64,000 bases of DNA, from positions 32,001-96,000 of IMG/VR virus record IMGVR_UViG_3300032073_000008. The stretch is one strand, 5' to 3'. A model generated the notes under the pieces. The model made no database searches and was not told the DNA's origin. It worked only from the letters and a program-made list of their open reading frames with translations. The first letter of the stretch is position 1. The number at the start of each line of letters is the position of its first letter. The translations under genes and the position numbers were made by a program. This DNA comes from a virus. Shown piece by piece: positions 6,834 through 49,797 of this stretch.

Positions 6834-7489
6834 TAAAAGAATTCCTCTAGAGTGTTTGGCTCATCACCTATTAATTTATCACGCATCCAAAACTCTCCTA
6901 CAGAAGAAATAGCTTCTTCTACAGTAGCAGTCTTTTTCTTACCAAAGCCATGAGACTCAAGCGATTCATCAAACAATTGTTTGATCACCTTTGGATCTTT
7001 AGGCAAAGCCAGATGCGGGACATTAATTGCTGTTGCCCTAAATGTGCACTGCTCCCTGATAGAAGGAAACAGTGGTTGATCAGAACGCAACGACCCAGTT
7101 GGATCAACAGCCCAAAATATCAAACCATTTCTTTTATGCCAAGTTATAGAAGATGGAGTGCAAGATATTTTCAAACGACTCATGCCATTATTAAAAGCAT
7201 CACTCATTACTCTTTCCCAGATAGCTGTAGCATATCCCTTTCCTTCATGACCTTGCCTAGTTACAATCTCATATAGATTAATATATCTCGATCTTTGACT
7301 ATAAGTAGCAAACACAAATGCAACCATTTCGCCATCAACCTCTAAGGCAAATGGCTTATTATCTTTTTCATAGTTTTTAAAACGAAACCACAAACTGTGT
7401 GATGAATTGAGGAACTTTGTATTTTTTCCTTCAGGGGAGTTCTCAATGACTTTCTCAATCATCTCTTGTGAACATCTTACTATGCGCAT
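6833..7489 (-). CDS. GNAT-family acetyltransferase
   Basis: NLYEIVTRQGHEGKGYAT acetyl-CoA-binding motif A; WHKRNG. Confidence 0.8.
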   Translation of the reverse strand: MRIVRCSQEMIEKVIENSPEGKNTKFLNSSHSLWFRFKNYEKDNKPFALEVDGEMVAFVFATYSQRSRYINLYEIVTRQGHEGKGYATAIWERVMSDAFNNGMSRLKISCTPSSITWHKRNGLIFWAVDPTGSLRSDQPLFPSIREQCTFRATAINVPHLALPKDPKVIKQLFDESLESHGFGKKKTATVEEAISSVGEFWMRDKLIGDEPNTLEEFF

Positions 7490-8172
7490 TGTAAGTCTCT
7501 CACTAATGCACCACCACGCAATGGAGAAGATTTCTCTAGCTTTCCATTGTATGTGTATGTTACATACATGTCTGTTCTTTGTTGATTTGTAATTGCACTT
7601 CTTTTTAGAATATCTTTTGTTGATGCGAATACAATACCATTATTTCGCTCACTATACCATAGTGGTCTTGCTTCATTTCTAAATCCAGTTAGACTCTTAT
7701 CTTTTTTGATACGACAGACAGCCATACTTGATGGGTAAAAATCATTCAATGGATCATTACCAGCCTCATATGATTTCAATATCAATTCACTGTCATTAGC
7801 TGTTTCAGTGTTATATTTCCACTTCTCTTTATCTTCTTGTGATATAACACCATTGTGAACAATACTTTGATCACCATTAGAGAAAGGTTGATTGTATCGA
7901 AGATCAGATGTTGAATAGCGAATATGACCAATAAGGTAGATACCACCATCCTCATTTATCATACTCTGAATTGGATATTTTGCGAGGAACTCATCACAAG
8001 GGATGCCCTCTTTTATCGTATATATCTTAGAATCTTTGACATATGATACACCAGTCGCATGTTTCCCTCTTATCATAGATTCGCGGAAAATACGCTCTAC
8101 CAGTTTAACATTCTCAATACTACCACGACTGACAGAGGATCTCTCTAACCAAACGCCTATCACACCACACAT
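7480..8172 (-). CDS. Class II (Ntn) glutamine amidotransferase, stand-alone glutaminase domain
   Basis: N-terminal MCGVIG, RG.HATG, GHIRYST, NQPF, HNGVI, NDSE. Confidence 0.9.
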   Translation of the reverse strand: MCGVIGVWLERSSVSRGSIENVKLVERIFRESMIRGKHATGVSYVKDSKIYTIKEGIPCDEFLAKYPIQSMINEDGGIYLIGHIRYSTSDLRYNQPFSNGDQSIVHNGVISQEDKEKWKYNTETANDSELILKSYEAGNDPLNDFYPSSMAVCRIKKDKSLTGFRNEARPLWYSERNNGIVFASTKDILKRSAITNQQRTDMYVTYTYNGKLEKSSPLRGGALVRDLQCA

Positions 8173-27849: not shown

Positions 27850-28590
27850 TTAGCCTATCATATCCATAGCTGGCATAGAGAATCGTTTCTGTACTTCTTC
27901 TTCTAACTTTTGGATTTCTTCATTGGCTTCATTCCAAATATTTTGACCATTAAATGTTACTCCACCTGGAAGTTGTAAACCCTCAAACTTTTTAAGGTTT
28001 TCACCCCATTGTTTTTTGATTAAAGCAGTCGCATATTGACGCAACCACCAATCGCCCCAGACTTGCGTATTTGAGTCTGGATCAATAACTTGATAACACT
28101 CAACGATAATATACTCACCGACATTTACTCTAGACCAGTCCATATCAATATGTAACTTGTCAGTGTGACGACTAAATCTTAATGGTTGCTTCCCTACAAA
28201 TAACTCTTGTAGGAGAGCGATTCTTTCCATAGAAGAAGCATAATTCTGAAATTGTGCGTGTGACCAATCATAAACATCATTAAGTGTTATTTGATATCTA
28301 AGATTGAACATATTATTTGTATTAAGTCCAGCACCAATTGGAAAAATGTTTATCACACCATTAATAGTTTCGGGTATAGTTAAATACCCATTATTAATAT
28401 CTGCTTGTGTTACTTGTGCTTTTAGAAAAGTTCTTTCGGTGCCATCATAATGATAATCTCTATAAAAATCTAATGCGTCATCTATACGATCATCTACTTG
28501 ATCGTCATCAACATTAATTTCAACAACTGGTGCACCGAGCCTGCGTAGGCAATATGTTTTGAATGTGCTTTTACTTGTAGGTACTGACAT
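27850..28590 (-). CDS. gp13: Neck protein
   Basis: YCLRRLGAPVVEINVDDDQ, YATALIK.QWG.NL.KF, LPGGVT.NG. Confidence 0.96.
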   Translation of the reverse strand: MSVPTSKSTFKTYCLRRLGAPVVEINVDDDQVDDRIDDALDFYRDYHYDGTERTFLKAQVTQADINNGYLTIPETINGVINIFPIGAGLNTNNMFNLRYQITLNDVYDWSHAQFQNYASSMERIALLQELFVGKQPLRFSRHTDKLHIDMDWSRVNVGEYIIVECYQVIDPDSNTQVWGDWWLRQYATALIKKQWGENLKKFEGLQLPGGVTFNGQNIWNEANEEIQKLEEEVQKRFSMPAMDMIG

Positions 28591-28623
28591 ATGTATAGTC
28601 TCGAAGTCTGGATTAATCTAGAC

Positions 28624-28631
28624 TATTTATA
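28624..28631 (-). promoter_or_regulatory. Late promoter for gp13
   Basis: TATAAATA. Confidence 0.8.
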
Positions 28632-28672
28632 AGAACAATAAACAGTTATAATCTATCAACTACACCATAAAT

Positions 28673-29209
28673 TCATGAAGGTATGCCTTTAAACTTCCCA
28701 TCTTCAAAATCATCCTCACCGAACACAAAATCTTCATATGCATTTTTCAAATCATCATCCCAATATTTTTTTTCATGTTTTTCAATAGCAGCAAATGTGA
28801 CCTCACAACCATCAAGTTCTGGAGTATCAGGTTCCCAATCAATTAACACAGTAGTTGAAACCAACATCATATTCCTCACTGCTTCTGCTAAATTATCGCC
28901 ATGAGATTCTTCGGTTTTAGATGTAGTTGCTAGAGGATAAAAAATTAATCCATTTTGTATTCTTTCTTTCTTTAATAAGCCGTGTGTTGTTGTCATCTTT
29001 TTTGACAAGAATAATGGTTTAAACTTCAAATATTTCTGAGGAACACCATCTTTTTTTCTGGCGATACGGCTCTCAGTTATTTCAACAACAGGAACTTGAG
29101 ATTGAATTTTCGGAGATGGATCAAAATCTTCATATCTTTCACCCAGTTCTTTCCTTATATGTTCCAATTCTTCTTCTGTCATGTGGTAATTTTTATTTGA
29201 TCTACTCAT
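28673..29209 (-). CDS. Hypothetical protein
   Basis: Open frame with ATGA overlap to the upstream 949-aa gene; no recognisable motif. Confidence 0.65.
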   Translation of the reverse strand: MSRSNKNYHMTEEELEHIRKELGERYEDFDPSPKIQSQVPVVEITESRIARKKDGVPQKYLKFKPLFLSKKMTTTHGLLKKERIQNGLIFYPLATTSKTEESHGDNLAEAVRNMMLVSTTVLIDWEPDTPELDGCEVTFAAIEKHEKKYWDDDLKNAYEDFVFGEDDFEDGKFKGIPS

Positions 29210-32055
29210 GTGTCTACGCACCTCATAACAAATGATTGTGCTATAACGGAATGCATTTTTTTCTGTACCGCATTTCCAGGTGGATAGCTATCATAATGAA
29301 CTGTTCCAGGACGCTGTAGCACTTCAAGTGCCAAGTTTCCAGCAGAGCTTGTTTTAGTGGGGTCATCAGGATCCATAATCATCGAAAGTGTGGTTCTAGC
29401 ACCGCCAGCATAGGATTGATATGTCCTGTATTCCTGTTCATGAATATGATTGTAGTCGACATTTGTGTGCGATATATCAAGAGTAGGTCTCTGAGGACCA
29501 AACGCAAAATCATCAAATACTGTATGAATCATAAGATCACCATAATTAACAGCTTGTTGAGTCTCTGGACCTAGAACATCACTCGAACCAAAAGTGAAAG
29601 ATTGAAGACCAGTTCTCTCTGGTGATTTGAAAGAGTTTGTCACACATTCCCATTTTCCTGGAAACATAAAAACATCTTGTACAGCAAAACGCTTGCTTGC
29701 ATGCTGACCGACAAATCTGACTTTTAATCTCCCTATCTCGCTAAGTGGAAGAGGGATATGATAGACATACCATAATGAGTGTGGGTGGTCTGCTTCATTG
29801 GATATGCCAGCTGTTTGACCTAGAGCTTCTAAATGTCCTTGCGGATAATCACCTTCTCCGTCGTTATCTTCTCCACCAAAAGAATATGCACCCCTCAATG
29901 GGAAACAGTCTACAGTAGATAAATCAGCATCACCAGTTCCTTCAGTAACATTTAAACAAGTGGGTTGAAATTTTGAAGAAGCATCATTAACAAAGTCATC
30001 CGAGTTGCCTCCCAAGTTCCCACCTTCATAAGAAAAATAACCTTTGGTGTCAGTTCCATCCATAACCTCTGCACCTAGCTGTGCGTGATTTATAAGGACG
30101 GTTGTGAAGGTATAGTCCCTATAATCTAATCTCTGGGAATAATTTTTTCTAGTTCCTTCTGAACCACCCCAAAATAAACCAAATAGATTAGTATCTTCTG
30201 TCACAGCAGATGTTGTGTCATGTTGAGGCATAGAACCAAAAAAACCGTCACCAGTGCCACCTGATATATATTGTTCAAACATAGCATCAGTGTCATATTT
30301 GAAAGAATAATAAGTCATTACTCTATCTTCTTCATGCTGAGGGCTTAAATATGTGTACTGTCTGCTAACTTCGGTTGGACCCCTGCTCCATGCTCTAGTA
30401 TTGTAAAAGTGTAACCTTGCTTCCCAAAGCTCTGGTTTTTTCTGAGCAGATTGAAAATCAGAAAATTTTAATAGGTTTCCTTCAACTGAGTGATCTCCGA
30501 TTGTTAATAACTCGCTATCATTGTAACGCGGTATTCCTCTTGTACCCCACCTTCCTGGTGTCGATGTTTGAAGCATTCTTCGCAATGCTTGTAACTCTAA
30601 CGCATCTGCATTAGAAGTATCACCTGCAGCACGAGTTTTTTTTGCTGCCGATATAAATGTGTTTACTATACCATCTGTTCTCGGAACATCAGCTAAAGGC
30701 AAGATTTTGTCTGAATGCCATAAAAAATCAGCAAAAGAAGTGTCATTATTCAAATCGCCATAGTAACCAACACTCGGAAGATTTAAAATACCATTATTGT
30801 CGCCTCTATCAGCATAATTGAGATAATATAATAACCTCACCACTCCAGCACTATCTGGACCCTCGACTGAGATGAGAGAACCACTTATAAAATATGGACC
30901 AATATCACTGCCAGTGTTATTTCTTAAGAACATGTTTTTTAGGTTGCCATTATATTCAATTTGACTAGCCCCAGTCGCAGTAAATTCACTACCAAAACGG
31001 TTTGATTCTATTATTGTTGTGAATTTAGTATCTCGCCCATCATTCAGGTTGTCAGTATCATAGGTTCCACCACTATCGCTTGGATTAAAACTGACTTGGA
31101 AAAAAGCACCGTCATTTCCTGACACAGTTCCTGAAGCGTCGGTAAAACCAGATGTGTCATATGCAGCATAAGTACCTGTGACATCTCGTGTTAAACCACG
31201 ATAATATCCGCTCAAGTATGACTCACTAAAAAATCTAACTCCTCCTTCCCATGAATGTGTTGACTCTGGTTTATAAACATCTGGCAGGTGACCAAATTCA
31301 TCCATGATACCACCTTCAAGTAAACTTAGATAAGTAATATCATTATTAACTTTTATACTGGGTGTTGATTCAGCACCAGTTTGGGAAATTTGAACAACCT
31401 TTCCTGCACCAATTTCTATCGAAGTATCATCGATTGTTGTACTCCATACACCATTTTCTTGGAGGCTTTGATCAAAATTCAAAATACCAAATATAGTATA
31501 AGTGGCAAAGGTTGGGTCGTTTGATGCTAATATTCTCGTATAATCTGCATGATGAAAACTGCTAGTATCAGTGCCTCTAATTTTAATTGTAAATTTGGAA
31601 ATGTTTCTTGGTTGAAGCATATCAATTTGCAGATAATTTAAACTTGCATCAGTGATGCCTAATGTCCACCACCAGTGAGATCCACCAAAAGCAGAATCTG
31701 GGCTATAGGTAGACGAATGAGAATAGCCAGCACTTACTGATATATCGCCTTGAGAGTATGGACCAAGTAGTTCGTCTGCACCACCATCAAGGTCGCTGCC
31801 ATCTACTGCGAATGTGGCGGTTGGATAGACTGTATTAGTCACAGCTTCCGTTATCTGACATGATGATATCGCCTGACGATCTGTGCTGTTATTAAAAGTT
31901 CTGAGAGCAGTTTCGTTTGCAGTTAATACAGCATCTGTGCCATCTGTAGCAATGATCCTATAATACCTATATGGACCGCCATGTGGACCACCGTTTCCAG
32001 CCACAGTAGAAGATCGAAATGAGATATCTCCTGTAGTTGATGATTTTACAGCCAT
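29206..32055 (-). CDS. 949-aa hypothetical protein, probably virion/receptor-binding; N-terminal discoidin/F5-8-like segment suspected
   Basis: YRYYRI, PDSAFG..WWW...YLQIDM.QPR.I.KF; G/S/T/D/Y-rich; under a late promoter. Confidence 0.55.
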   Translation of the reverse strand: MAVKSSTTGDISFRSSTVAGNGGPHGGPYRYYRIIATDGTDAVLTANETALRTFNNSTDRQAISSCQITEAVTNTVYPTATFAVDGSDLDGGADELLGPYSQGDISVSAGYSHSSTYSPDSAFGGSHWWWTLGITDASLNYLQIDMLQPRNISKFTIKIRGTDTSSFHHADYTRILASNDPTFATYTIFGILNFDQSLQENGVWSTTIDDTSIEIGAGKVVQISQTGAESTPSIKVNNDITYLSLLEGGIMDEFGHLPDVYKPESTHSWEGGVRFFSESYLSGYYRGLTRDVTGTYAAYDTSGFTDASGTVSGNDGAFFQVSFNPSDSGGTYDTDNLNDGRDTKFTTIIESNRFGSEFTATGASQIEYNGNLKNMFLRNNTGSDIGPYFISGSLISVEGPDSAGVVRLLYYLNYADRGDNNGILNLPSVGYYGDLNNDTSFADFLWHSDKILPLADVPRTDGIVNTFISAAKKTRAAGDTSNADALELQALRRMLQTSTPGRWGTRGIPRYNDSELLTIGDHSVEGNLLKFSDFQSAQKKPELWEARLHFYNTRAWSRGPTEVSRQYTYLSPQHEEDRVMTYYSFKYDTDAMFEQYISGGTGDGFFGSMPQHDTTSAVTEDTNLFGLFWGGSEGTRKNYSQRLDYRDYTFTTVLINHAQLGAEVMDGTDTKGYFSYEGGNLGGNSDDFVNDASSKFQPTCLNVTEGTGDADLSTVDCFPLRGAYSFGGEDNDGEGDYPQGHLEALGQTAGISNEADHPHSLWYVYHIPLPLSEIGRLKVRFVGQHASKRFAVQDVFMFPGKWECVTNSFKSPERTGLQSFTFGSSDVLGPETQQAVNYGDLMIHTVFDDFAFGPQRPTLDISHTNVDYNHIHEQEYRTYQSYAGGARTTLSMIMDPDDPTKTSSAGNLALEVLQRPGTVHYDSYPPGNAVQKKMHSVIAQSFVMRCVDT

Positions 32056-32080: not shown

Positions 32081-32410
32081 TCAGACCCACGGAAGATCGC
32101 GTGGTTGAGTAGAGTTTCTTTTTTCTTCTATGGCTTGATCACAAGCGTTTTTACATTTGTTAAGATATTCATCAGAAATATTTGACTCGATCCAAGAAAC
32201 GACTGTATTTGCTTGTAAGTTGCCAAACTCTACAAATTCGGATCCTGATTCTGGTTCTGGTATAACAGTGTTTCCTTCAAATCTAACAACAGTGCCATCA
32301 TCGTGGGTTCCAACTAAATGAAATGCCACATTCACTACAGCTTTTTCATGACCATGTGATGTTGTTTTAGTATCTAGATAAACAATGTCGTAGTAATATT
32401 GGTTTGCCAT
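32081..32410 (-). CDS. Small fibre-associated protein (possible assembly chaperone)
   Basis: FVEFGNL....V..W and C-terminal LPW, a pattern common next to phage fibre genes. Confidence 0.6.
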   Translation of the reverse strand: MANQYYYDIVYLDTKTTSHGHEKAVVNVAFHLVGTHDDGTVVRFEGNTVIPEPESGSEFVEFGNLQANTVVSWIESNISDEYLNKCKNACDQAIEEKRNSTQPRDLPWV

Positions 32411-32473: not shown

Positions 32474-33622
32474 TTATTTATTTTTGATCATATTATATTT
32501 TTCTTCTAAGCTCTTAGCTGAACAATTGGCTGGATGTTCTATTTGACAAACAACCTCACCATCAACCTCAATATCCCACAAATAATTTAATGTTGTCTCA
32601 AACACTTCAGGAACATAATCTGGAGGATAATCAACCTCAAGCTCAGGTAATGAATAATCTTCATGCAACAACATTTGCTTTTCCATATTGCATATCTCTT
32701 GGTTAAAAGGAAATAACCATTTGTTATTATTCTCACCAAATTCACCAACTTGACAAACAACTCCAGGATTGCTAGTATCATAGATATATGTTGGCGGTTT
32801 TTCCACATTGCAAAACATTTCTAATCTTCCATGATAAGATTCATTTTTAAGAATAAAATATTGTGCTGTATCTTCTCCTACAAGAAGAAATTCTTTAAAT
32901 TTATGTACTGCTGCTTTTCTAGAATACCATGTTACTCTGCAGTGAGCTTCAAATGTTTCGCAATATTTTTGTTGTTTAGCATAATATATTAACATCTCTA
33001 ATCTATCGCCTTTAGATATTTTCCTATCACTTGATAGTCCAGCGATGACTTTATTCCATAATTCTTTCTTTCTTACTTTACCATCAGCAGAATCTAATAG
33101 GTTAAGTGTTTCAGGTTCACCATTTACAGTAAAAATTAAATTTGGTTTAACCTTGATATATTCTTCTGGTATATCACCAAGTTTCAATTCATTTTGATCA
33201 ACATTATTTTCTTTTATCCATGTGTCAACAAGATTTCTATCCCAGACAAGAGCCATTTGATTTTTCATGCAAATAACATCTGGTGGAGAGTCTTGCTCAG
33301 CTATTCTTTTATACATCCAAACGCCATGTTGTGTCAAATAATCATCACCGTCAATCATAACAAAATAATCTTGATCACTCTCTAAAAATAAATCAAGCAC
33401 ACTGTTCTTTCCACGCGATGCAGTTCCGTTAGAATCTGTGACATAATGTTCTATATCTCTAGAGGAACACCACTCTTTCGCTTCAGCTTCATACTCTTTA
33501 TCTAAAGTATTGATTACAACAATAAGATCTTCCTTTGGTATTGCACTATAATCTGGGTGAATGTGTCTTTCAAGGCAATTAATTGATCTAGTAGTTAATA
33601 CATAAAATTTCATTTTATTCAT
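32474..33622 (-). CDS. GT-A-fold glycosyltransferase-like protein
   Basis: LIVVINT, SNGTASRGKNSVL, YFVMIDGDDYL (DxD), VGED. Confidence 0.7.
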   Translation of the reverse strand: MNKMKFYVLTTRSINCLERHIHPDYSAIPKEDLIVVINTLDKEYEAEAKEWCSSRDIEHYVTDSNGTASRGKNSVLDLFLESDQDYFVMIDGDDYLTQHGVWMYKRIAEQDSPPDVICMKNQMALVWDRNLVDTWIKENNVDQNELKLGDIPEEYIKVKPNLIFTVNGEPETLNLLDSADGKVRKKELWNKVIAGLSSDRKISKGDRLEMLIYYAKQQKYCETFEAHCRVTWYSRKAAVHKFKEFLLVGEDTAQYFILKNESYHGRLEMFCNVEKPPTYIYDTSNPGVVCQVGEFGENNNKWLFPFNQEICNMEKQMLLHEDYSLPELEVDYPPDYVPEVFETTLNYLWDIEVDGEVVCQIEHPANCSAKSLEEKYNMIKNK

Positions 33623-34242
33623 CTATCAATCCTTTTTATCCAACTGCTGTCTTGAAATACTTTTGTTGGTCTTTTGATAATTTCATCTATAGCCTGCACG
33701 CATCCAGGAAATGCTGGCTCATCTGTTTTGGGGAATTGAGGAAATCTGTAATCATGCCCACCTATAAAACCCCCAGTTTTAACTTTTGGTATGTAATTAA
33801 TCAAATCAGATTTAACTGCTTCATAGCTATGGTTAGCATCAATGTAAATGAAATCAAAATATTCGTCTTGAAATACTTCGTGGATATTTTGGCTGAAATC
33901 TCTATGATGCACAATATTATGATAATGTCTGGTATTTAAAAGAAACTGATTTTCAACAAACTCCCAGTCATAAAAATTCTCATCATTAAATTGTTCTTCT
34001 CCAGTGAATGGCTCTATACAATGTATTTCTTTAAATAAATTTGCCATACCAAACATAGCTGTTGATTCGCCCATGTAACTACCAATCTCGAGCATTTTTG
34101 CTTCCTTCACACCTCTTTTTTGCAGATCTTGTATTAATCTAAAAAGACCAGTCACAAAAACATTACCTTTGAACTCACTAAAAAATTGTGGTGGTGTGAA
34201 TCTAAGTGAGTATAAAACTTTGTCATCTCTTGTGTATGTCAT
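33619..34242 (-). CDS. Class I SAM-dependent methyltransferase (Methyltransf_24-like)
   Basis: LEIGSYMGES, DFIYIDANHSYEAV..D, GGFIGGHDY; ATGA overlaps at both ends. Confidence 0.9.
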   Translation of the reverse strand: MTYTRDDKVLYSLRFTPPQFFSEFKGNVFVTGLFRLIQDLQKRGVKEAKMLEIGSYMGESTAMFGMANLFKEIHCIEPFTGEEQFNDENFYDWEFVENQFLLNTRHYHNIVHHRDFSQNIHEVFQDEYFDFIYIDANHSYEAVKSDLINYIPKVKTGGFIGGHDYRFPQFPKTDEPAFPGCVQAIDEIIKRPTKVFQDSSWIKRIDR

Positions 34243-36110
34243 AAAGTATCTCCTGTGTACCTCGAAGTCCACATTGTCAGACTATATTTAACGCCACTCG
34301 TCAACTCTTCACACAAGTGACCGTGTGTTACCATTCCTGGAAATAGTATACACTTACCAACTTCTATATTTTTATTGGTGATATTTTGTCTTGGAAAAAC
34401 TAAATCAGCACCCTCATACTCATCATTTAATTTTACTGATCCAGTAATCATGCTTGCGTCACAGTGATGGTTTAGGCTCTTTTGTGTTTCTAGACAATAC
34501 CTCATAACAAACGCATCGCGTAATCCATACATTAATGTTGGTTTCCAGAATGCTTCTGTTATAGGATAAATGTTTTTCTGCCAATGGTTTTCTAATGCTT
34601 CAAAAGCACCAAACTCTGACATTCGTATTTCATAAGCTGGGAACTTATCTCCTTCCAATGGCTCCCACCCACCATGATTGTCTGCCATCGCAATCAAGTC
34701 TTCGCATTGTGATTGTGTCATGAAGTCTATGACTAACATATCATCGGATATAACATCAACCCCTTTGTAGTTTGGTATATACAACATTGGTGTTGACATC
34801 TTAACAGAGTTTCTTGCAGCATTAAATTTTTTCTTTGCTTCGTCACCACCGTTTCCATGATAGATACACCCAAATGTATTAGTGACAGGATTTAAAAATT
34901 TATTTTGGTCAACATCATATTTCACTTGTGGCTCGTGACATTGGAATATGTAACCCTCATAGTCCAGCTTCATGTCATAATCACCAGACAAGAATGCTTT
35001 CTGATAAAATAGTTGATCATCTGAAGAGTTTTCAATAGTGGCAGAGCTGAGTATCTTTTTCAGCTCACTTACAACCCCAATAAATGTACCGCTGTTTAGG
35101 TATCTATACTTTGTGCCACCATCTGGGAACTTTTCAGCAAGGGATTTATCTGGCCAAATCTCTGTCTCGGATGAGAATAAAACTTTTGTTCGGAAGCTGA
35201 GATATCTTCTAGTTATCTCCTCAAGGTCAGAGAAATACATCACATCATATGCATCAGTAAAAAGAACAACATCGTTGTCTGGGAGTTCATTCACATAGTC
35301 TCTGAGGATATTAATCTTATGACCACCCCCAGTTGATTGCATAGTGCCACCTTGCCACTCAACACCTTTACCGAGATTTTTAGGATAAACACCATACAAC
35401 GCAGCAGTGTCATTTAGAGGAGCACATTTTTTTATGTCAGTGCCAATTGTTACAGCGTGTGTATTGAAGTCAATGAAGAAGTCAGCTTCATTATTATTTT
35501 CTATATCTGATGACAACAAAGATCTGGGTGTTTGCTTTATAACATCATCTTTAAATGCAACAACATTCATATTGTCTATCATTATAGGAAGATATTCGTC
35601 TACTGGTATTATTGCTTGATCAACATTCCCATCAATAAGCTGTTGTGCTGTTTTTGGCGTTATAGCATAAGCATGGGCGTTATATGGATATGATGGAACT
35701 TCAAGCTCATCATCTATTGAAACAACCTCGTCAGGTCTATTTTCGTTCCTGCCAAAATAGACCATATCATATTTTTTTATTAGTTTATTTGCTTTCTTGT
35801 CGGTGTAATTATCTCCAACAATCGCATCATCTTCTAATATGAGAACTGGTTCATTTAATTCGATGCATTTCAACCACGCTTCTCGATGAGATAAAGTGCA
35901 TCCAACCTCTGATTTTTTAAGTTTTCTATTTAAGAAAGGATCACGCCAAGACAAATGCGATGAAAACCCAATGCCCTTCAATGCTTTGAAATCTAATCCA
36001 GAAGCATCTATGGCATTGAGCCATTCATAATTTGTTATTTTTGAATTTACTTTTAAAAAGTGTTCCTTGCGATCTGTTCTTCTCGCAAGATTTATAACCA
36101 ACTTTTTCAT
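34239..36110 (-). CDS. Three-domain GT25 (ColGalT/LgtB-like) + PLOD-type glycosyltransferase + 2OG-Fe(II) lysyl-hydroxylase-like protein
   Basis: GT25: INLARRTDRK, EVGCTLSH..AW, ILEDDA, PVDEYLP. PLOD GT: W.GG.M...GGGHKI, VLFTDAYDV, YLNSGTFIG, DDQLFY, HGNG. Hydroxylase: FVMRY, HHCDAS, NDEYEG...F, LFPG.VTH.H, G.KY. Confidence 0.88.
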   Translation of the reverse strand: MKKLVINLARRTDRKEHFLKVNSKITNYEWLNAIDASGLDFKALKGIGFSSHLSWRDPFLNRKLKKSEVGCTLSHREAWLKCIELNEPVLILEDDAIVGDNYTDKKANKLIKKYDMVYFGRNENRPDEVVSIDDELEVPSYPYNAHAYAITPKTAQQLIDGNVDQAIIPVDEYLPIMIDNMNVVAFKDDVIKQTPRSLLSSDIENNNEADFFIDFNTHAVTIGTDIKKCAPLNDTAALYGVYPKNLGKGVEWQGGTMQSTGGGHKINILRDYVNELPDNDVVLFTDAYDVMYFSDLEEITRRYLSFRTKVLFSSETEIWPDKSLAEKFPDGGTKYRYLNSGTFIGVVSELKKILSSATIENSSDDQLFYQKAFLSGDYDMKLDYEGYIFQCHEPQVKYDVDQNKFLNPVTNTFGCIYHGNGGDEAKKKFNAARNSVKMSTPMLYIPNYKGVDVISDDMLVIDFMTQSQCEDLIAMADNHGGWEPLEGDKFPAYEIRMSEFGAFEALENHWQKNIYPITEAFWKPTLMYGLRDAFVMRYCLETQKSLNHHCDASMITGSVKLNDEYEGADLVFPRQNITNKNIEVGKCILFPGMVTHGHLCEELTSGVKYSLTMWTSRYTGDTL

Positions 36111-36171
36111 CAACCACTCCGCAACATAATCAAATTTATGCTACTATATAGGAGTTGTAAAAAAGATGATT

Positions 36172-37815: not shown

Positions 37816-37828
37816 AATCAACAACTTA
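37816..37828 (+). promoter_or_regulatory. IHF consensus site
   Basis: AATCAACAACTTA matches WATCAANNNNTTR. Confidence 0.5.
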
Positions 37829-38905
37829 GCCCAAAGGCTTACTGAGTTCATCCCAGCTTATTTCATAGTCGTTGTTGGAGTCTGCATATTTCATTATGCC
37901 GAGTTTCTCATATTCAGGGATAAATTCTGTCCTGAGCAGTCCTATCCTTTTCAGATTAGGCATTATCCGAGTGAATAATGTACTCTGGAACTTTCGTTGA
38001 ATCCAATGGGGTGGATCCATTTGATAATCTTCGGTGTATTCAACATCCATACCATAATGCTCCCACAGAGCAAATGGCTTTAGATTTTTGCGACTAATCG
38101 TGCATGCTTCGAGAGCAAACTTCGCTCTATCATATTTTTCTTCTTCACTCAATGTTTCAATATACTCTTTAAGGTATGTCACACCAAAAGCAACATGCCT
38201 TGCTTCGTCTCTTAATATCAGCTCTATCATTCTTTTATATACTGGATCGTCTGCTGCTTCTTTTGCTACACTGAATGCAGCCAATGCAAATCCTTCTAGG
38301 ATTACTTGCATGCCAAGAAATTTAAGATCCCATCTTGGATCTGTGAGTATTTTATCTAACAACCCTTTGAAGTGTCTATTGACTGGCCAAAGTTTATTGA
38401 GTCTTGTTTGGATATATTTGTTAAATGCTTCTACATGTCTTGCTTCATCAAATGCTTGACTTGCAGCATATAGTTTTGCGTTGTATGTGGGTGCACAACT
38501 ACATAACTGACTAGCCACTAATAATGAACATTGCTCTCCATGTAAGAACTGGCTGTTGTACCAAGAGAACATATCAGATAAGAATTGTACTCTTTTCTCT
38601 TTACTCCAACGCTTGTATACTTTATGATTTTCCCATTGAGCATTCTCAAACTCAAACATGAAACTTGTGATTCCTGGATATTCAATAGACCAATCTATAT
38701 CAAGCTCAACATTCCAGTTTAGCTTTTTACCAAGCTCATAAAGTCTTTTAATACGATCATCGTGCAGAGAGTAATCCCAGTTGTAACTTCCAACTAGAGG
38801 TGTTTCAAAAGTTTCTATTATATCAGATGGCTCGAGGTCGGGGATAATGTCTTCACCGCAAAGTTTTATTTCTTTCGGTGGTGTCTTTCTTTTGTCAATC
38901 TGCAT
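37826..38905 (-). CDS. Ferritin-like di-iron protein (AurF/N-oxygenase-like)
   Basis: SQFLHGEQ...DEARHVEAF...QVILEG...DEARHVAFG, two ExxH motifs. Confidence 0.85.
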   Translation of the reverse strand: MQIDKRKTPPKEIKLCGEDIIPDLEPSDIIETFETPLVGSYNWDYSLHDDRIKRLYELGKKLNWNVELDIDWSIEYPGITSFMFEFENAQWENHKVYKRWSKEKRVQFLSDMFSWYNSQFLHGEQCSLLVASQLCSCAPTYNAKLYAASQAFDEARHVEAFNKYIQTRLNKLWPVNRHFKGLLDKILTDPRWDLKFLGMQVILEGFALAAFSVAKEAADDPVYKRMIELILRDEARHVAFGVTYLKEYIETLSEEEKYDRAKFALEACTISRKNLKPFALWEHYGMDVEYTEDYQMDPPHWIQRKFQSTLFTRIMPNLKRIGLLRTEFIPEYEKLGIMKYADSNNDYEISWDELSKPLG

Positions 38906-39628: not shown

Positions 39629-40536
39629 TATTGTGGTATTCTCCACTTGCCCATTAAATGACCCATAACTTGGTTTCTTTCACCATCAGAGAGCAATCTA
39701 TTATAATTTATAATTTCCATTATATGACCACTAAACATTGCAAAGGTTGAATTATTCTGGGCGGTGCTGTTGCCTAAGGTATTAAATCCTGATCCTCCAA
39801 CCATCCACCTTGTTCCTATGTTACCAATTTTTGTTTTTGTTTGACTATCTGCAGCATCTGTCCCAGTGTTTGTTAATGTCATGCGACTACTACCAATTCC
39901 TGGATCACTATAAACAACTCTTGTACCTGCATTCAATTGTCCATTATGTCCATTTGTTGAGTGGCTGTCAGTATAGTTTGTTTGATGCTGTATCAAAGCA
40001 TCAACACCATCAGCTAAATTAGTGGCAATTTCTATTTGAGCATCTGATGTACCAGTAGCTGTAGCAGAAGAACCGCCCATAGCAAATACATGGTCTTCAT
40101 CATCACCAAATTGGGCATCTGTCCCATCACCGCCCAACAATATACCATTTCCAGACTCTAACGCTTTAAGTCTAAAATAATTTGTCGCATAAGGTGAAGT
40201 TCTTAAAGATGTTGCTGTTTTATTTAAAACTATAAAGACAGTGTATTGAAACTCATTCCACTGCGGAGCAGTAGTATGCATTATTTCGTTAAATTGGAAT
40301 CCATCTGGTCCAAAAACTACTGATGGCAACCCATTTGAAGGAGAAGTTGAGGTTGATGGTTTTTTGTTATCTGCACTTTGTGTTGCATGATATCCATTAC
40401 CAGACTTATCATTCCATTGACTAATCAGTCCACTGCTTGAAGTGATACTACTACTGTCCGATGCATCTAACCATTGGTATAGATTTGGAATATCACTTGG
40501 AACAAATGATTGAGCAACAACTGCAGCACTAAACAT
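39628..40536 (-). CDS. LamG/concanavalin-A-like lectin-domain virion protein
   Basis: WLDASD......ISQWNDKSGNGYHATQ...G.I.EII.YNR.LS..ER..V..HL..KW. Confidence 0.8.
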   Translation of the reverse strand: MFSAAVVAQSFVPSDIPNLYQWLDASDSSSITSSSGLISQWNDKSGNGYHATQSADNKKPSTSTSPSNGLPSVVFGPDGFQFNEIMHTTAPQWNEFQYTVFIVLNKTATSLRTSPYATNYFRLKALESGNGILLGGDGTDAQFGDDEDHVFAMGGSSATATGTSDAQIEIATNLADGVDALIQHQTNYTDSHSTNGHNGQLNAGTRVVYSDPGIGSSRMTLTNTGTDAADSQTKTKIGNIGTRWMVGGSGFNTLGNSTAQNNSTFAMFSGHIMEIINYNRLLSDGERNQVMGHLMGKWRIPQ

Positions 40537-43500
40537 TAACTGATACCACCACCGAATATGGTGAGAGTATCTGAGCCAGTAACAACAAGCTCAGCAACAC
40601 CACCTGAAGCAATAGTGCTGTTTGCACTTAATGCAGTAAATGAACCGCCTGAAGCAAAGTTTAATGTTATACTGTTAGTTGTTTTATCTAGTGTTAATGC
40701 TTGTGTTGTAGAGTTTACAACTGTAAATATCTGACCAACAGTGCTAACAGAAGGAATCTTAAATATATTCACACCGCCAGTATGTGTGTTTATAACTTTC
40801 TTGTTTGCTTCCATTGTGTATGTTGTATTTGCAGCACTGATAACAACAGTTGTTGGATTTGCGGTTATACCACCAGATACATTTAATGACCCACTTAGTT
40901 CTAAATCAGAATAAAATGTTGAACCAGCACCTTCTAAGCTCAACACTTCAGCATTAGTTCCTGCTGTTATAGCATCGAACCGTATACGACCATCTTCTGT
41001 TCCATCAGATACATCAGCAATCTCAGCATAAATTGATCCATACTGAATCTTTTCTGCGGGTGATGATGGTGGATTTGCTGTATCATTAATCCCAAAAAAT
41101 CTTATAGCTCCTAATTCATCATTATCTGACGCACTGTGCAAACCAGTTCCTGATTTACGATATAACTCTAAAACAGGATTTTCAGTCTGTCCTTCTGTAG
41201 TATCAAAACTTATTAGCGATAATGATCCAGAATTTAAAAACCCAGTTGAAGGATTATAAGTTAGACCGTACTCTCCAGTATGATCTCTAAGACCATTTGA
41301 TTCATCATGAAATACAACTGGTAAATTTGAATCCGTTAGCGTTGAGTCAGCAGTTACAGTAACCGTTGTCGCAAGAGTGGCTGTTGCCGCAGTCCCAGTA
41401 GTATCTTGGTTAAGAGTTGCTACCCTTGCTGCAGCAATTGTACCAGAGTTTATCTGTTCACCACTAATAGATTTATTTGTTAGCGTGTCACTACTTGAGG
41501 CAGTAATAAATGAACTTAACTCTGAGTCTCTAGCTATGCCACTTGGAATCCTTGCATCAGCTATTGTCCCAGTTAATTGACCAGCATCAATAGATTTATT
41601 TGTTAGTGTATCACTACTAGATGCTGTGATAAACGAGCTCAAATCTGAAGTAAGAGCCATTGTACCAGCAGCATTAGGGAATGTAATATCTAATGTACCA
41701 AATGAACCTGCACCATCTACTTGAGCAGGAGCTTGCAATTTAATTGCATTTGTTCCATTATCAGTGCCTTCTCTAAATACAACAGCACCGCCAGTTGTAG
41801 TGCCTAATGCTGACATTGTCAAACCACCTAATGTGCTGGTGGTTAATGCAGTCTGTACTGCACTTGTTACAACATCAGGTATTCTCGCATCATCTATTGT
41901 TCCAGTTAATTGACTAGCATCAATAGATTTATTAGTTAATGTGTCAGTGCTATCTTTTAAAACGACTGTGCCAGATGCATTAGGTAATATGATTTCTCTA
42001 TTAGTATTTGGATCATCGCAGTACAAAGTTGTTCTTATTGATGAACCTGTTGTATTACCTTCAAATTGTATATTGCCATTTTGTCCTAATATTAAATCAT
42101 TATCTGATCCAAGCAATATTCCTGCAGGTGCTAATGTCATAACTGGATCTTCAACAGTACCATTATTTAAGATACCAAAATCTAATCTTCCATATTCAGC
42201 ATCAGATGTTGGATCAGCTATCTCAGCATGAATGGTAGCATATTCTGTTTTGTTTCCTGCAGAGTCTTCACCATTGAATTTTATAATACCCAATTTATCA
42301 TTTGTTGCAGGAGATGAAGAGTTACGATGTAATGAAATAATAGGATCAACAGCAGTTCCAGTATCAGGAGCAATAACTTCAAAAATATTACCACTAATTT
42401 GGTTTTGAACAAGTGGTCCAGTAACAGTTAATGAGCCCAATGTGCCGACACTTGTTAATGATGAAGATAATACAGTAGAGCCTAATTGCGTTTGACTCAG
42501 GATATCATTACCGTTGATTCTAAATTGTTTAGTAGATGCAAGTTCGAAGTTTTCAGATGATGTCCAAGAATCAGTTGAGTTGATCCAATTGATTGTTTTG
42601 TCAGTTGAGCCTTTTAATGTAATACCACCACCATCAGCAGTAGTGTCAGAAGGTGATGTGACAGAGCCAAGCTCTATGTTTTTATCATCTACAGTTAATG
42701 TAGTAGAGTTTACTGTCGTTGTAGTGCCATTAACAGTCATGTCACCATGAACAGTTAAATTGCCAGAAACATCACCATTACCATTAATATCTAATCCGCC
42801 AGCTGTAACTGTGTTGGCACCAACATCAATATTACCAAACCCTGATGAAATAGAACCAGAGTTTAAAGCACCAGTACCAACTACATGTGATAAGTTTGTG
42901 TTAACTGAAAAAACATTATTAGAAAATACTGATGTGTTTGCAGTTAATGTTAAACCAGTACCTGCGTCAATAATAGGTTTAGGTCTTAAGAATGAACCAT
43001 TCGCAGAAAGGAACAAATAACTGCTTTGATTATTAGCAAATGCTCCACCCAAATTGTTTAAAGCTGCATTAGTCTCTAATGAAATTACATTATTGCCAGT
43101 TTGATCACTAATAACAATTCCTGTTCCACCATAATACAGCGTGTCGGTATCTATTGGGGCAGTAAATTGACCTCGTGCGTTTAAGAAAGCAACAGTATTT
43201 CCTGAAGAATTGTCACCGCCTAAATTGGTTAATGCTGCACCAGCACTTAATGAAATTGCGTCTTTGCCTTCTTGGAAATCAGTATTTGAGTTTAGTGTTA
43301 CTGTTATCCCAGTACCGCCATAATATTGTTCTGTAGCAGACCAGATACCATCATGTCTTAGGAATCTGGCTTGATCACTAGGATCATATCCAAGATTTAT
43401 TATTGCAGCATTGGAAGAAAGAGAAAATTGATTATCAACATTTAAGTCGAGACCAGTCCCAGCTGTAAAGTTTTTAATGAATGTGCCATCTTTTCTCAGA

Positions 43501-44435
43501 ATGGCTGTGGTATTTGCTCCATCACCGCCTAAATTAACTAGAGCAGAGTTTGCAGTAAGAGAAAGTGTATTGCCAGATAATGTAATTCCAGTACCACCAA
43601 CCAAAGCTGTTTTAGAAATTTCTATACCAGCTGAAGCATTTACATCTGCATTTACGATCGATCCTGCAGTTATAGAAGCAACACCTTGATTCGTGATTGC
43701 AATGTCACCGCTTATACTCTTGTTATCAAAACTATCAGTTCCATCATGTATTATAAACTGACCAGAACTTGGACTTGTTATAGTTGTATCAACTAATTCA
43801 GCAAGAGCATCTTTGCCAGCTGATGTCGCATCAACATACGCTTTAATTGATTCTGATGTGGGAACATTTGTATTATTAGCTGAACCAAAACTATCATCAT
43901 CAATAAAATTTGTTATGGTTACTGAACCTGTTCCACTGAATCCGTCAGCTTCAAGAGTTCCTGTAACATCAAGAACAGTATTGCTAGTTGCTCTTATCTG
44001 CGTTGTGTCAACCCAATTAGTATTTGCTGACTCATAAACTAAAAATGCACCATCTTGCGGATCAGTTATCTTTACTTCTGTAACAAAATCAACAGCACCT
44101 TCTCTTGTAACTTCTTGTGTTACTGTTACTTGCCCCTCAGCAAGACGCGACCGTTTGTTTGCATCAGTTGTCAACTCAATATCATATACATAACGACCAG
44201 CAGGAAGCGAAGAAGTTTGTGCTCTAGCCAAAGAGATAGTAACTTCACCTTTCGTTCTATCACCAAATGTCACAGTAAAGTTTGTTGCTGTGTCTGATGT
44301 AAATGACTTACGAATTTGACCAGCAGCACTAAACCCAGTTACATTTTGTACTGTTCCGTCTGTGTTTTTAGCGATAAGTGTTTCAGAAAAATCAGTACCC
44401 TGATCTACTGTAAGATTTAGCTTTTGAGATGCCAT
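40536..44435 (-). CDS. Tail fibre-like protein (1299 aa) with N-terminal attachment domain and internal repeats
   Basis: VDQGTDFS...GRYVYDIEL..EG.VTV N-terminus; GTG repeats; NGTTTTVNSTTL..DDK, TLTNKSI motifs. Confidence 0.8.
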   Translation of the reverse strand: MASQKLNLTVDQGTDFSETLIAKNTDGTVQNVTGFSAAGQIRKSFTSDTATNFTVTFGDRTKGEVTISLARAQTSSLPAGRYVYDIELTTDANKRSRLAEGQVTVTQEVTREGAVDFVTEVKITDPQDGAFLVYESANTNWVDTTQIRATSNTVLDVTGTLEADGFSGTGSVTITNFIDDDSFGSANNTNVPTSESIKAYVDATSAGKDALAELVDTTITSPSSGQFIIHDGTDSFDNKSISGDIAITNQGVASITAGSIVNADVNASAGIEISKTALVGGTGITLSGNTLSLTANSALVNLGGDGANTTAILRKDGTFIKNFTAGTGLDLNVDNQFSLSSNAAIINLGYDPSDQARFLRHDGIWSATEQYYGGTGITVTLNSNTDFQEGKDAISLSAGAALTNLGGDNSSGNTVAFLNARGQFTAPIDTDTLYYGGTGIVISDQTGNNVISLETNAALNNLGGAFANNQSSYLFLSANGSFLRPKPIIDAGTGLTLTANTSVFSNNVFSVNTNLSHVVGTGALNSGSISSGFGNIDVGANTVTAGGLDINGNGDVSGNLTVHGDMTVNGTTTTVNSTTLTVDDKNIELGSVTSPSDTTADGGGITLKGSTDKTINWINSTDSWTSSENFELASTKQFRINGNDILSQTQLGSTVLSSSLTSVGTLGSLTVTGPLVQNQISGNIFEVIAPDTGTAVDPIISLHRNSSSPATNDKLGIIKFNGEDSAGNKTEYATIHAEIADPTSDAEYGRLDFGILNNGTVEDPVMTLAPAGILLGSDNDLILGQNGNIQFEGNTTGSSIRTTLYCDDPNTNREIILPNASGTVVLKDSTDTLTNKSIDASQLTGTIDDARIPDVVTSAVQTALTTSTLGGLTMSALGTTTGGAVVFREGTDNGTNAIKLQAPAQVDGAGSFGTLDITFPNAAGTMALTSDLSSFITASSSDTLTNKSIDAGQLTGTIADARIPSGIARDSELSSFITASSSDTLTNKSISGEQINSGTIAAARVATLNQDTTGTAATATLATTVTVTADSTLTDSNLPVVFHDESNGLRDHTGEYGLTYNPSTGFLNSGSLSLISFDTTEGQTENPVLELYRKSGTGLHSASDNDELGAIRFFGINDTANPPSSPAEKIQYGSIYAEIADVSDGTEDGRIRFDAITAGTNAEVLSLEGAGSTFYSDLELSGSLNVSGGITANPTTVVISAANTTYTMEANKKVINTHTGGVNIFKIPSVSTVGQIFTVVNSTTQALTLDKTTNSITLNFASGGSFTALSANSTIASGGVAELVVTGSDTLTIFGGGIS
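41420..41960 (-). repeat. Three degenerate DTLTNKSI..Q..GTI..AR repeats
   Basis: Visible in the translation of the 1299-aa fibre; approximate bounds. Confidence 0.7.
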
Positions 44436-49550
<5,115 letters not shown>

Positions 49551-49578: not shown

Positions 49579-49797
49579 TTAGCTATCTCTATTTATTAGA
49601 ATTGATAACATGTTTTTCATTTCATCCATCTGTTTTTTCATATCATCAATTTCTTTTTTTGTTTTTTCTCGAATATCATTATCAAGAACCCTTTGTTGAT
49701 GCCTATTGTGTTCCCCAATATCATTACAAAATATCGCACCAGTCTCTGGGTCGACTGTTAATTCAGGTCGACCCTCTACAGTATAGACTTCTTTCAT
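49579..49797 (-). CDS. Small coiled-coil hypothetical protein
   Basis: VEGRPEL..DPETGAI...EI..MK....EMK.ML, a pattern seen after VrlC-like genes in T4-like phages. Confidence 0.75.
   Translation of the reverse strand: MKEVYTVEGRPELTVDPETGAIFCNDIGEHNRHQQRVLDNDIREKTKKEIDDMKKQMDEMKNMLSILINRDS

Follow-up and report, generated by a model that had tools for sequence, protein, structure and literature searches.

Collagen-lysine modification in animals and mimivirus

To our knowledge, O-glycosylation of hydroxylysine in collagen has been characterised only in animals and mimivirus. In humans the three catalytic modules are divided between LH3 (PLOD3) and ColGalT1 (GLT25D1), proteins of about 720 and 620 amino acids that make up the KOGG complex (6fxr, 9evj, 8zgc) and whose target is the lysine at the Y position of GXY triplets. 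LH3 has the domain order GT-AC-LH, where AC is an accessory domain, and ColGalT1 the order GT1-GT2, where GT1 is non-catalytic. ColGalT1 is unusual in having an EDD Mn2+ motif instead of DxD (PMC12003778). Mimivirus encodes its own set of enzymes for its collagen-like fibres, consisting of L230 (lysyl hydroxylase and hydroxylysine glucosyltransferase), R699 (GGT) and the GT25-like R655. The mimivirus collagen-modifying enzymes are soluble in E. coli.

A candidate single-chain collagen-lysine modifier in a marine phage

The window analysed here is a stretch of 64,000 nucleotides (positions 32,001 to 96,000 of IMG/VR record IMGVR_UViG_3300032073_000008) from a marine, T4-like phage whose major capsid protein shares ~62% identity with its counterparts in pelagimyophages and cyanomyophages. 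The phage has no close cultured relative, and a megablast search with 20 kb around the enzyme gene found no match among GenBank phages. Two SDR sugar enzymes are also encoded by this phage.

The enzyme gene (Table 1) lies in an uninterrupted open reading frame at 34239-36113 on the minus strand, with a TTG at 36113 and an ATG at 36110, and the protein begins MKKLVINL. Residues are numbered from the TTG, so that the methionine is residue 2. A GT25 domain, a PLOD-type glycosyltransferase (PLOD-GT) domain and a lysyl-hydroxylase (LH)-type 2OG/Fe(II) domain follow one another in a single 623-residue chain. Nothing precedes the GT25 domain, and a linker of ~30 residues (427-457) separates the PLOD-GT and LH domains. 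The E-values of the domains in Pfam and in phmmer searches of the PDB are far beyond the chance level. A sequence-only reading of this DNA had described three domains with intact motifs, and all the motifs that it listed were found at the expected aligned positions. That reading had also proposed structural superposition on human LH3 and ColGalT1 as a check. In the AlphaFold2 (AF2) model (pLDDT 87), the individual domains overlay on their counterparts in human LH3 and ColGalT1 and in mimivirus R699 and L230, with rmsd values of about 2.1-2.4 Å.

Table 1. Positions of the enzyme, its domains and motifs, the two downstream genes and the putative fibre substrate within the window
Feature	Position	Strand	Basis or remark
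Three-domain enzyme gene	34239..36110	-	623 aa counted from ATG at 36110
GT25 / ColGalT1-GT2-like inverting glycosyltransferase domain, residues 3-188	35550..36107	-	PF01755, ColGalT1 alignment, Foldseek
RRTDR motif inside GT25 domain	36069-36083	-	
E94-D95-D96 (EDD)	35826..35834	-	LEDDA aligned with FEDDL of ColGalT1
PLOD/LH3-type retaining glycosyltransferase domain, residues 232-437	34803..35420	-	PF25342, Foldseek
TDAYD, residues 286-290	35244..35258	-	D287/D290 = LH3 DxxD Mn2+ ligands D112/D115; Y289 = Y114
D365-D366-Q367 (DDQ)	35013..35021	-	Aligned with LH3 poly-Asp D190/D191, acceptor site
H419-G-N-G (HGNG), residues 419-422	34848..34859	-	H419 = LH3 H253, Mn2+ ligand
Lysyl-hydroxylase-type 2OG/Fe(II) dioxygenase domain, residues 458-616	34266..34742	-	LH3/L230 matches, Foldseek
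H550-C-D552, first two Fe(II) ligands	34458..34466	-	LH3 H667/D669; L230 H825/D827
H599, third Fe(II) ligand	34317..34319	-	LH3 H719; L230 H877
K609 in GVKY	34287..34289	-	At 2OG C5-carboxylate-binding Arg position, LH3 R729; L230 R887
Class I SAM methyltransferase (Methyltransf_24)	33619..34242	-	ATGA overlap with enzyme gene
GT-A-fold (GT2-like) glycosyltransferase, unchanged DGDD motif	32474..33622	-	ATGA overlap with methyltransferase gene
1703-aa tail fibre with collagen domain and C-terminal Peptidase_S74 intramolecular chaperone	44436..49547	-	Putative substrate
Collagen run 1, 27 GXY triplets (GEK, GQK, GLK)	46059..46301	-	
Collagen run 2, 15 triplets	45489..45623	-	
Collagen run 3, 15 triplets	45108..45242	-	

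The phage protein shares with the human pair the EDD motif, the DxxD, His and poly-Asp elements and the HxD...H triad with its Tyr. Unlike the human proteins, it would act in the bacterial cytoplasm, with no signal peptide or ER, and its identity to them is only 15-33%. Both the AC domain of LH3 and the GT1 domain of ColGalT1 are absent, and although the phage protein is predicted to work like the animal system, as a whole it belongs to neither animal protein family. In mimivirus, a virus of eukaryotes, the functions are spread over three genes, whereas the phage version is one gene in bacteriophages; R699 retains the AC domain and L230 retains Arg887, and the phage enzyme has neither.

Glycosyltransferase domains

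Residues 3-174 match the Pfam GT25 family PF01755 above the gathering score (E 7e-24; 85.2 bits against a cut-off of 24). The closest solved relative is the GT2 domain of ColGalT1 (E 3e-17 to 1.6e-16 by phmmer against the PDB), with bacterial GT25 proteins giving a much weaker match (E 2e-3 versus 3e-17), and Foldseek places the domain on ColGalT1 GT2 (9evk) with an rmsd of 2.1 Å. E94, D95 and D96 align with the catalytic Mn2+-binding EDD of ColGalT1.

The match of residues 232-437 to Pfam GT_PLOD (PF25342) is also above the gathering score (E 3.5e-52; 177.5 bits, cut-off 27), and phmmer against the PDB returns the GT domain of LH3 (E 1e-27) and mimivirus R699 (E 1e-32). Foldseek assigns a GT-A fold, with an rmsd of 2.4 Å to both the LH3 GT domain (6wfv, TMt 0.83) and R699. 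The residues that make up the Mn2+ site of LH3 (D112, D115 and H253) align with D287, D290 and H419. A YLNSG motif occupies residues 338-342, and W320 aligns with Trp145 of LH3, a position at which the family has W or Y.

Across an alignment of 32 homologues with 49-89% identity, the catalytic residues of the enzyme are unchanged, namely E94/D95/D96 of the GT25 domain, D287/D290/H419 and D365/D366 of the PLOD-GT domain, and H550/D552/H599 and Y539/K609 of the LH domain. This conservation argues that both GT domains are active in most members of the family.

Lysyl-hydroxylase-type domain

The LH domain of LH3 is matched by phmmer against the PDB with E 2e-6, or 2e-7 when the C-terminal domain alone is the query, and that of mimivirus L230 with E 2e-5. 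In Foldseek comparisons the domain superimposes on the L230 LH domain with TMt 0.74-0.75 and an rmsd of 2.2-2.3 Å (E 3e-11). The Fe(II) triad HxD...H is complete, and the Tyr of the 2OG site is kept (Y539, equivalent to L230 Y814).

The sole departure from the LH signature is at the position ten residues after the second His, where the Arg is absent and Lys (K609) is found in every aligned homologue, so that a basic residue still stands at the +10 spacing. The alignment with LH3 and L230 bears out the earlier remark that the residue at the usual 2OG-binding Arg position is Lys. Collagen prolyl 4-hydroxylases (P4Hs) have a 2OG-binding Lys at the same +10 spacing after the second His, and by this analogy the exchange of Lys for Arg is taken to be tolerated. 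A literature search on the P4H Lys-493 precedent found no paper. The Lys at the 2OG site also raised the idea that the C-terminal domain is a prolyl hydroxylase. That identity was rejected here, as this phage's collagen runs lack Pro and LH domains are better matches in both sequence and fold; P4Hs gave no match to the domain in the phmmer search of the PDB and weaker ones in Foldseek (TMt 0.5-0.64, E about 1e-6).

Putative fibre substrate and proposed pathway

No collagen protein other than the tail fibre is encoded in the 110-kb phage record. Its three collagen runs hold 57 GXY triplets, and a recount returned the same figure as the sequence-only reading, with Lys at Y in 48 of the 57; Lys is never at X. 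Since the runs are without Pro, Lys is the only classical hydroxylation target in them. In the window, 8.3 kb separate the fibre gene from the enzyme gene, compared with a median of 1.4 kb elsewhere.

The enzyme is very likely a single-chain modifier of collagen lysines whose target is the phage's own fibre, modified in the infected cell prior to trimerisation; the mimivirus set likewise acts on the fibres of its own virus. The same role had been suggested from the sequence, and the conserved residues, the fold matches of the predicted model, the presence of a single collagen protein and the linkage described below are all consistent with it. By homology, the C-terminal 2OG/Fe(II) domain would hydroxylate the Y-position Lys of Gly-X-Lys-Gly to 5-hydroxylysine (Hyl). 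The N-terminal GT25 domain (inverting, EDD/Mn2+) would then transfer a hexose from a UDP-sugar onto the new hydroxyl; by analogy with ColGalT1 the sugar would be Gal, although Glc, the sugar transferred by mimivirus L230, is an alternative. The central PLOD-type GT (retaining, DxxD/His/Mn2+, with a poly-Asp acceptor site) would attach a second hexose, which would be Glc by analogy with LH3 and R699. Human LH3 and ColGalT1 act as a physical complex (PMC11897130), which makes such a fusion mechanistically natural. Helix stability, protease shielding and host binding are speculative benefits of the modification.

Two translationally coupled genes downstream, encoding the SAM methyltransferase and the GT-A glycosyltransferase, probably serve to extend or methylate the glycan. 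The second of these products, a 382-amino-acid protein, was identified as a GT-A glycosyltransferase only by its AF2 model and Foldseek. Sequence searches of Pfam, PHROGs, NCBIfam and the PDB gave no matches to it, and a profile comparison found it to be unrelated to the three-domain enzyme. Of 82 related loci, 11 have the gene for this glycosyltransferase directly after that for the enzyme.

The enzyme might instead act on the fibre with chemistry that differs from that of animals, through a Glc-Hyl or other hexose series, a GT domain that is only structural, or hydroxylation of another carbon. The product of mimivirus L230 is Glc-Hyl and R699 may prefer a Glc-Hyl acceptor, donor specificity is unreadable from alignments of these enzymes, and the additional genes for a GT and a methyltransferase hint at a glycan that differs from that of animals. 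The GT1 domain of ColGalT1 is a precedent for a structural-only GT domain. In the homologue of phage CRP-6, moreover, the GT25 domain is missing ~48 residues at its start and has EED in place of EDD, so the three activities need not all be present everywhere. The unchanged catalytic residues of both GT domains in the 32-member alignment count against this alternative, and we consider it unlikely.

Linkage of the enzyme family to collagens with Lys at Y

If the enzyme modifies collagen lysines, the sequence-only reading had reasoned, its homologues should not commonly occur in phages that lack GXK collagen. A collagen gene with Lys at Y was found in all 36 related viral loci having at least 5 kb of upstream flank. 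In 35 of these the collagen open reading frame is just upstream on the same strand. The other (locus L056) has no collagen within 10 kb, but a search of the whole record located Lys-at-Y collagen frames 15 kb upstream. The linkage extends to the cultured Synechococcus phages S-CAM9, S-PRM1 and S-8S55 and Roseobacter phage CRP-6, to MAG contigs, and to a diverged two-domain PLOD-GT+LH form of the enzyme.

Lys occupies 37.1% of Y positions and none of the X positions in the 5135 triplets of the enzyme-locus collagens, versus 4.9% of Y and 2.1% of X in 80 randomly sampled viral collagen loci (Mann-Whitney p = 1e-16, with duplicate loci removed). All 45 control records lack the enzyme. Some viral collagens rich in Lys (17-37% at Y) also occur in records in which no enzyme was found, but these records are incomplete or were outside the search. 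The preference for Y over X fits selection on an X-Lys-Gly substrate.

Outside the collagen runs, 60 of 67 enzyme-linked fibres join one mosaic cluster, and the idea that these fibres are independent families was therefore rejected. Since most of them form one mosaic family, co-inheritance of a module could explain part of the co-occurrence. Taken further, enzyme and fibre might simply travel together as a mosaic module while the hydroxylase acts on another virion or host protein or on a small molecule, and cyanophages do have many 2OG oxygenases that lack an assigned target (PMC2938197). Such hitch-hiking is very improbable, however, given that the Lys-at-Y, never-X pattern persists down to enzyme identities of about 40% and in the two-domain form, and that the fibre has no rival collagen protein in the record.

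Distribution and annotation of the family

The family is present in at least 527 viral contigs. A scan with a single sequence recovered only one locus, and the family was recovered with an alignment-based scan. The family is modular: the LH domain occurs by itself, as PLOD-GT+LH and as GT25+PLOD-GT+LH, and some members also contain a methyltransferase (at the N-terminus of the fusion in homologue P0257) or have two GT25 domains (homologue P0266). Cultured carriers are S-CAM9, S-PRM1, S-8S53/55/56 and CRP-6. PHROG 61, "2OG-Fe(II) oxygenase", is the same family across its entire length (phrog_61, E 3e-130), as are S-CAM9 S050808_031, S-PRM1 gp162 and CRP-6 gp58 (40-50% identity), which likewise follow tail-fibre genes. 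In GenBank these coding sequences are labelled hypothetical protein, 2OG-Fe(II) oxygenase or auxiliary metabolic gene, with no collagen role. A literature search found no paper describing the family.

Databases name the family only "2OG-Fe(II) oxygenase" or "GT25, LPS biosynthesis". The latter name implies modification of host LPS or another cell-surface glycan, for instance in superinfection exclusion; bacterial LOS galactosyltransferases (8xkd and related entries) are GT25 members too, and glycosyltransferases in the fibre region of pelagimyophages have been interpreted as O-chain modifiers (PMC7029224). Such a role is highly doubtful, as it leaves unexplained both the obligatory fusion to lysyl-hydroxylase and PLOD-type GT domains and the near-perfect linkage to GXK collagen genes, and in both sequence and fold the protein matches collagen enzymes best, rather than LOS enzymes.

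Significance

The evidence suggests that a previously undescribed system for fibre glycosylation is common among the phages of the ocean. It is likely that marine phages as different as T4-like myoviruses and a 45-kb Roseobacter phage glycosylate their tail fibres with a full Lys to Hyl to diglycosyl-Hyl pathway that is contained in one polypeptide and able to work in the bacterial cytoplasm. The existence of cultured carriers makes the idea directly testable. If true, the family would correct the widespread labels "LPS biosynthesis GT25", "2OG-Fe(II) oxygenase" and auxiliary metabolic gene, as well as the reading of fibre-adjacent glycosyltransferases as host-surface modifiers.

Production of modified recombinant collagen in E. 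coli currently requires several poorly expressed animal enzymes, and the phage protein, compact, single-chain and native to a bacterial host, would offer a means of making collagen that is both hydroxylated and glycosylated. The family would also be a natural Rosetta-stone fusion of the LH3-ColGalT1 complex and an independent evolutionary sample bearing on the origin of the LH, PLOD-GT and GT25 modules and on why the complex exists. Among phages, it would represent a new type of virion protein glycosylation, one likely to influence the stability, protease resistance and receptor binding of fibres in very abundant marine phages. Hyl-linked glycosylation, held to be a trait of animals and giant viruses, would then be a common virion modification in the ocean.

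Domain architecture and catalytic residues

The enzyme is confirmed as a three-domain protein. In addition to the two glycosyltransferase (GT) domains recognized by Pfam (see the table), PDB sequence searches match the N-terminal module to the catalytic GT2 domain of human ColGalT1 (3e-17) and the central module to the GT domain of human LH3 and to mimivirus R699. The third module, residues 458-613, matches the lysyl hydroxylase (LH) domain of human LH3 when searched alone (2e-7), and also that of mimivirus L230 (2e-5). An AF2 model built on an alignment of 32 homologues (mean pLDDT 87, pTM 0.75) has full-length LH3 as its top Foldseek match against the PDB (E 5e-27). The likeness to LH3 and ColGalT1 proposed in the sequence-only reading is borne out domain by domain, with an rmsd of 2.4 Å to the LH3 GT domain (TMt 0.83) and 2.1 Å to ColGalT1; R699 superposes at 2.4 Å and the L230 LH domain at 2.2 Å (TMt 0.75), and bacterial and viral prolyl hydroxylases are poorer matches. 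The PLOD GT and LH domains are just ~30 residues apart (427-457), and the accessory (AC) domain of LH3 is therefore absent, as is the non-catalytic GT1 domain of ColGalT1.

Motifs described from the sequence as intact in the three domains all occur at aligned catalytic positions. Residues E94-D95-D96 align with the EDD of ColGalT1, an unusual Mn2+-binding catalytic motif according to a 2025 structure paper (PMC12003778). D287, D290 and H419 correspond to the Mn2+ ligands D112, D115 and H253 of LH3 (PMC11897130), D365 and D366 to its poly-Asp acceptor residues D190 and D191 (PMC9546862), and W320 to W145. In the LH domain, the Fe(II) triads of LH3 and L230 have their aligned counterparts in H550, D552 and H599, and the 2OG-binding Tyr814 of L230 has its own in Y539 (PMC5802723). 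The sole departure is K609, which takes the place of R729 in LH3 and R887 in L230, so that the earlier caveat about a Lys at the usual 2OG-binding Arg position is real. None of these residues varies in the alignment of 32 full-length homologues (49-89% identity); as this holds for K609 too, the Lys is a family trait rather than a sign of decay. K609 lies exactly 10 residues past the second His of the triad; collagen prolyl 4-hydroxylases have a 2OG-binding Lys at this same spacing.

Coordinates of the enzyme, the fibre and associated genes (window positions unless another record is named)
Feature	Position	Strand	Description
Enzyme ORF	34239-36113	-	open; ATG at 36110; product begins MKKLVINL
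GT25 domain	enzyme residues 3-174		Pfam, E 7e-24
PLOD GT domain	enzyme residues 232-437		Pfam, E 3.5e-52
Methyltransf_24 and 382-aa protein genes	32474-34242	-	three-gene unit with the enzyme gene; successive ATGA overlaps
DUF7936 / phrog_7802 small protein	32081-32410	-	
AurF-like di-iron oxygenase	37826-38905	-	PF11583, E 1.8e-11
Fibre	44436-49547	-	1703 aa; Pfam Collagen, C-terminal Peptidase_S74 intramolecular chaperone
Fibre-like gene	40536-44435	-	1299 aa
Fibre-like gene	49797-55853	-	2018 aa; DUF4815
Sugar-gene regions, whole phage record (G000:C1)	6387-8125; 27852-29511		outside the window
PF13640 oxygenases, locus L001	13839-15004		
PF13640 oxygenases, locus L212	10839-12004		
PF13640 oxygenases, locus L213	10824-12004		
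CRP-6 gp58, locus L002	10130-11899		589 aa

The candidate substrate and its linkage to the enzyme

The phage is a marine T4-like myovirus whose major capsid protein shares ~62% identity with its counterparts in pelagimyophages and cyanomyophages, and the fibre is the single real collagen protein in its 110,317-bp record. GXY triplets of the fibre are grouped in three runs (27, 15 and 15), all Pro-free. A recount agrees with the original figure of Lys at Y in 48 of the 57 triplets, and Lys occurs at X in none. The fibre gene is flanked by two further very large fibre-like genes whose products lack collagen runs. A gene for an AurF-like di-iron oxygenase, not found in any of 82 related loci, sits within the fibre module, with the enzyme gene on one side and the fibre genes on the other.

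Linkage was surveyed in the best 80 viral loci and scored in those with at least 5 kb of upstream flank (n=36). A same-strand upstream ORF with Lys-at-Y collagen runs is present in 35 of these, with a median gap of 1.4 kb between the collagen and enzyme genes, and in the one exception two such ORFs lie 15 kb upstream within its record. Homologues in phages lacking Gly-X-Lys collagen, which would have counted against the proposed role, were thus not seen among the flanked loci, and in no surveyed viral locus does a collagen gene lie downstream of the enzyme gene. The same arrangement is found in the cultured Kyanoviridae phages S-CAM9, S-PRM1 and S-8S55, in the 45-kb Roseobacter phage CRP-6, in metagenome-assembled genome (MAG) contigs that have flank, and with diverged two-domain PLOD-GT+LH relatives.

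Collagens at enzyme loci carry Lys at 37.1% of Y positions (1903/5135) and at 0 of X, as compared with 4.9% of Y and 2.1% of X in a control of 80 viral loci sampled by a pattern for any 10-triplet GXY run (per-locus difference, p = 1e-16, duplicates removed). The enzyme was found in none of the 45 searchable control records. Lys triplets of enzyme-linked collagens share the context G-(A/S/Q)-K-G-Q-K-G-E-(V/I), which could be a recognition element for the hydroxylase. Followed by a further G, this cassette recurs within GPT/GAT/GST-type collagen in L002, L205, L206, L210, L220 and other loci. The Lys context in control collagens is different, being GPK, GEK or GDK, then D-T.

Part of the linkage may reflect co-inheritance of fibre and enzyme as a module, since masking of the collagen runs leaves 60 of the 67 enzyme-linked fibres joined in one single-linkage cluster, and the loci are therefore not independent observations. 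Lys nevertheless never occurs at X in enzyme-linked collagens, down to ~40% enzyme identity, a pattern not easily accounted for unless selection has acted on X-Lys-Gly as a target. Some control collagens are also rich in Lys (26-37% at Y in L087, L112, L135 and L146), and L135, at 37%, has 4 Lys at X. The enzyme was not found in the searched records of L084, L087, L112 and L146, which are incomplete (29-85% by CheckV for the first three, 18% for L146); the L135 and L107 records fell outside the enzyme search. The collagens of L087, L112, L135 and L146 may use a different or unlinked hydroxylase, or none.

Neighbouring genes and possible sugar supply

The gene following that of the enzyme encodes a SAM methyltransferase (Methyltransf_24). 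This neighbour was not found beside the enzyme gene in other loci, but a functional link is supported by P0257, a family protein of 875 aa in which the same methyltransferase domain is fused N-terminal to GT25-PLOD_GT-LH. The 382-aa protein encoded downstream has no match in any sequence library searched, and its family has an invariant DGDD motif. Foldseek matches its AF2 model (pLDDT 88) to TarP, TarS and RmlT, among other GT-A glycosyltransferases, and on this model it is a predicted GT-A glycosyltransferase; members of its family come directly after the enzyme gene at 11 of 82 loci. Given these two neighbours, the glycan of this phage may exceed the animal disaccharide and may be methylated. 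In 8 related loci, the gene for the small DUF7936 protein is conserved after those of the enzyme and the GT.

In the part of the phage record that lies upstream of the window there are genes for two SDR-type nucleotide-sugar epimerase/dehydratase proteins, whose GalE/RmlB-like matches are weak and do not reach the NCBIfam cut-offs; the record also encodes an FkbM methyltransferase and a protein with weak likeness to GT8. Within a few kb of the enzyme gene, S-PRM1 and S-8S55 likewise encode a nucleotide-sugar epimerase, and all of these proteins could supply donor sugars. Kyanoviridae carriers have two small PF13640 2OG-Fe(II) oxygenases encoded between the collagen fibre gene and the enzyme gene, and in their fibres the X residue is Pro in 21-31 of 55-59 triplets (GPT, GPK). 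These oxygenases are candidate prolyl hydroxylases for the same fibre; their genes are absent from the window.

Family distribution and relation to known systems

The family is large: of 8000 candidates scored in the protein collection, 691 matched, and IMG/VR contains at least 527 relatives. It is scarcely present in prokaryote genomes, where ~185,000 species gave only 6 matching contigs; each comes from a MAG, and the majority are short. The LH domain alone, searched against 1.8 billion representative proteins, returned 852 clusters at E <= 1e-3. Architectures include LH alone (~200 aa), PLOD_GT+LH (~420 aa), the three-domain form (~610-690 aa), the methyltransferase fusion of P0257, and a 942-aa form with two GT25 stretches before PLOD_GT+LH that is reminiscent of GT1+GT2 in ColGalT1 (P0266); P0256 and P0244 belong to these variants too. 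CRP-6 gp58 lacks the first ~48 GT25 residues, the RxDR motif among them, and has EED in place of EDD, with PLOD-GT and LH motifs intact. In this member the first glycosyltransferase may have degenerated.

In databases the family goes under PHROG 61, "2OG-Fe(II) oxygenase", which is classed with morons and auxiliary metabolic genes, under names that refer to GT25 and LPS biosynthesis, or as hypothetical proteins in GenBank, and a full-text literature search found no paper assigning it a collagen-modifying role. Glycosyltransferases of the fibre region were read as modifiers of the host O-chain in a pelagimyophage study (PMC7029224). A 2022 review describes most prokaryotic collagens as free of hydroxylation and glycosylation, with mimivirus the only virus mentioned (PMC8968730). 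Iyer et al. (2010) predicted that collagen-like proteins are hydroxylated in bacteria by other dioxygenase families; this enzyme is not among their predictions (PMC2938197).

Predicted modification of the fibre

Linkage, composition and domain matches together support the sequence-only reading, and the phage enzyme probably hydroxylates and glycosylates Lys residues of its own fibre. Late in infection, the LH domain would hydroxylate Y-position Lys of nascent fibre chains with Fe2+, 2OG and O2, after which the GT25 domain would add a hexose to hydroxylysine and the PLOD-type domain a second hexose. The order is modelled on that in animals, where LH3 and ColGalT1 work physically bound to each other and none of the three steps takes place once LH activity is lost (PMC11897130). 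Mimivirus L230 makes Glc-Hyl, which R699 may prefer as acceptor. The phage enzyme would work like the LH3/ColGalT1 pair and the mimivirus L230, R699 and R655 set, but differs from both in being a bacteriophage-encoded single chain without AC and GT1 domains, and from LH3 and L230 in having Lys rather than Arg at the 2OG site. With 48 sites per chain, a trimeric fibre could carry up to 144 glycans, and cultured phages exist in which the prediction can be tested.
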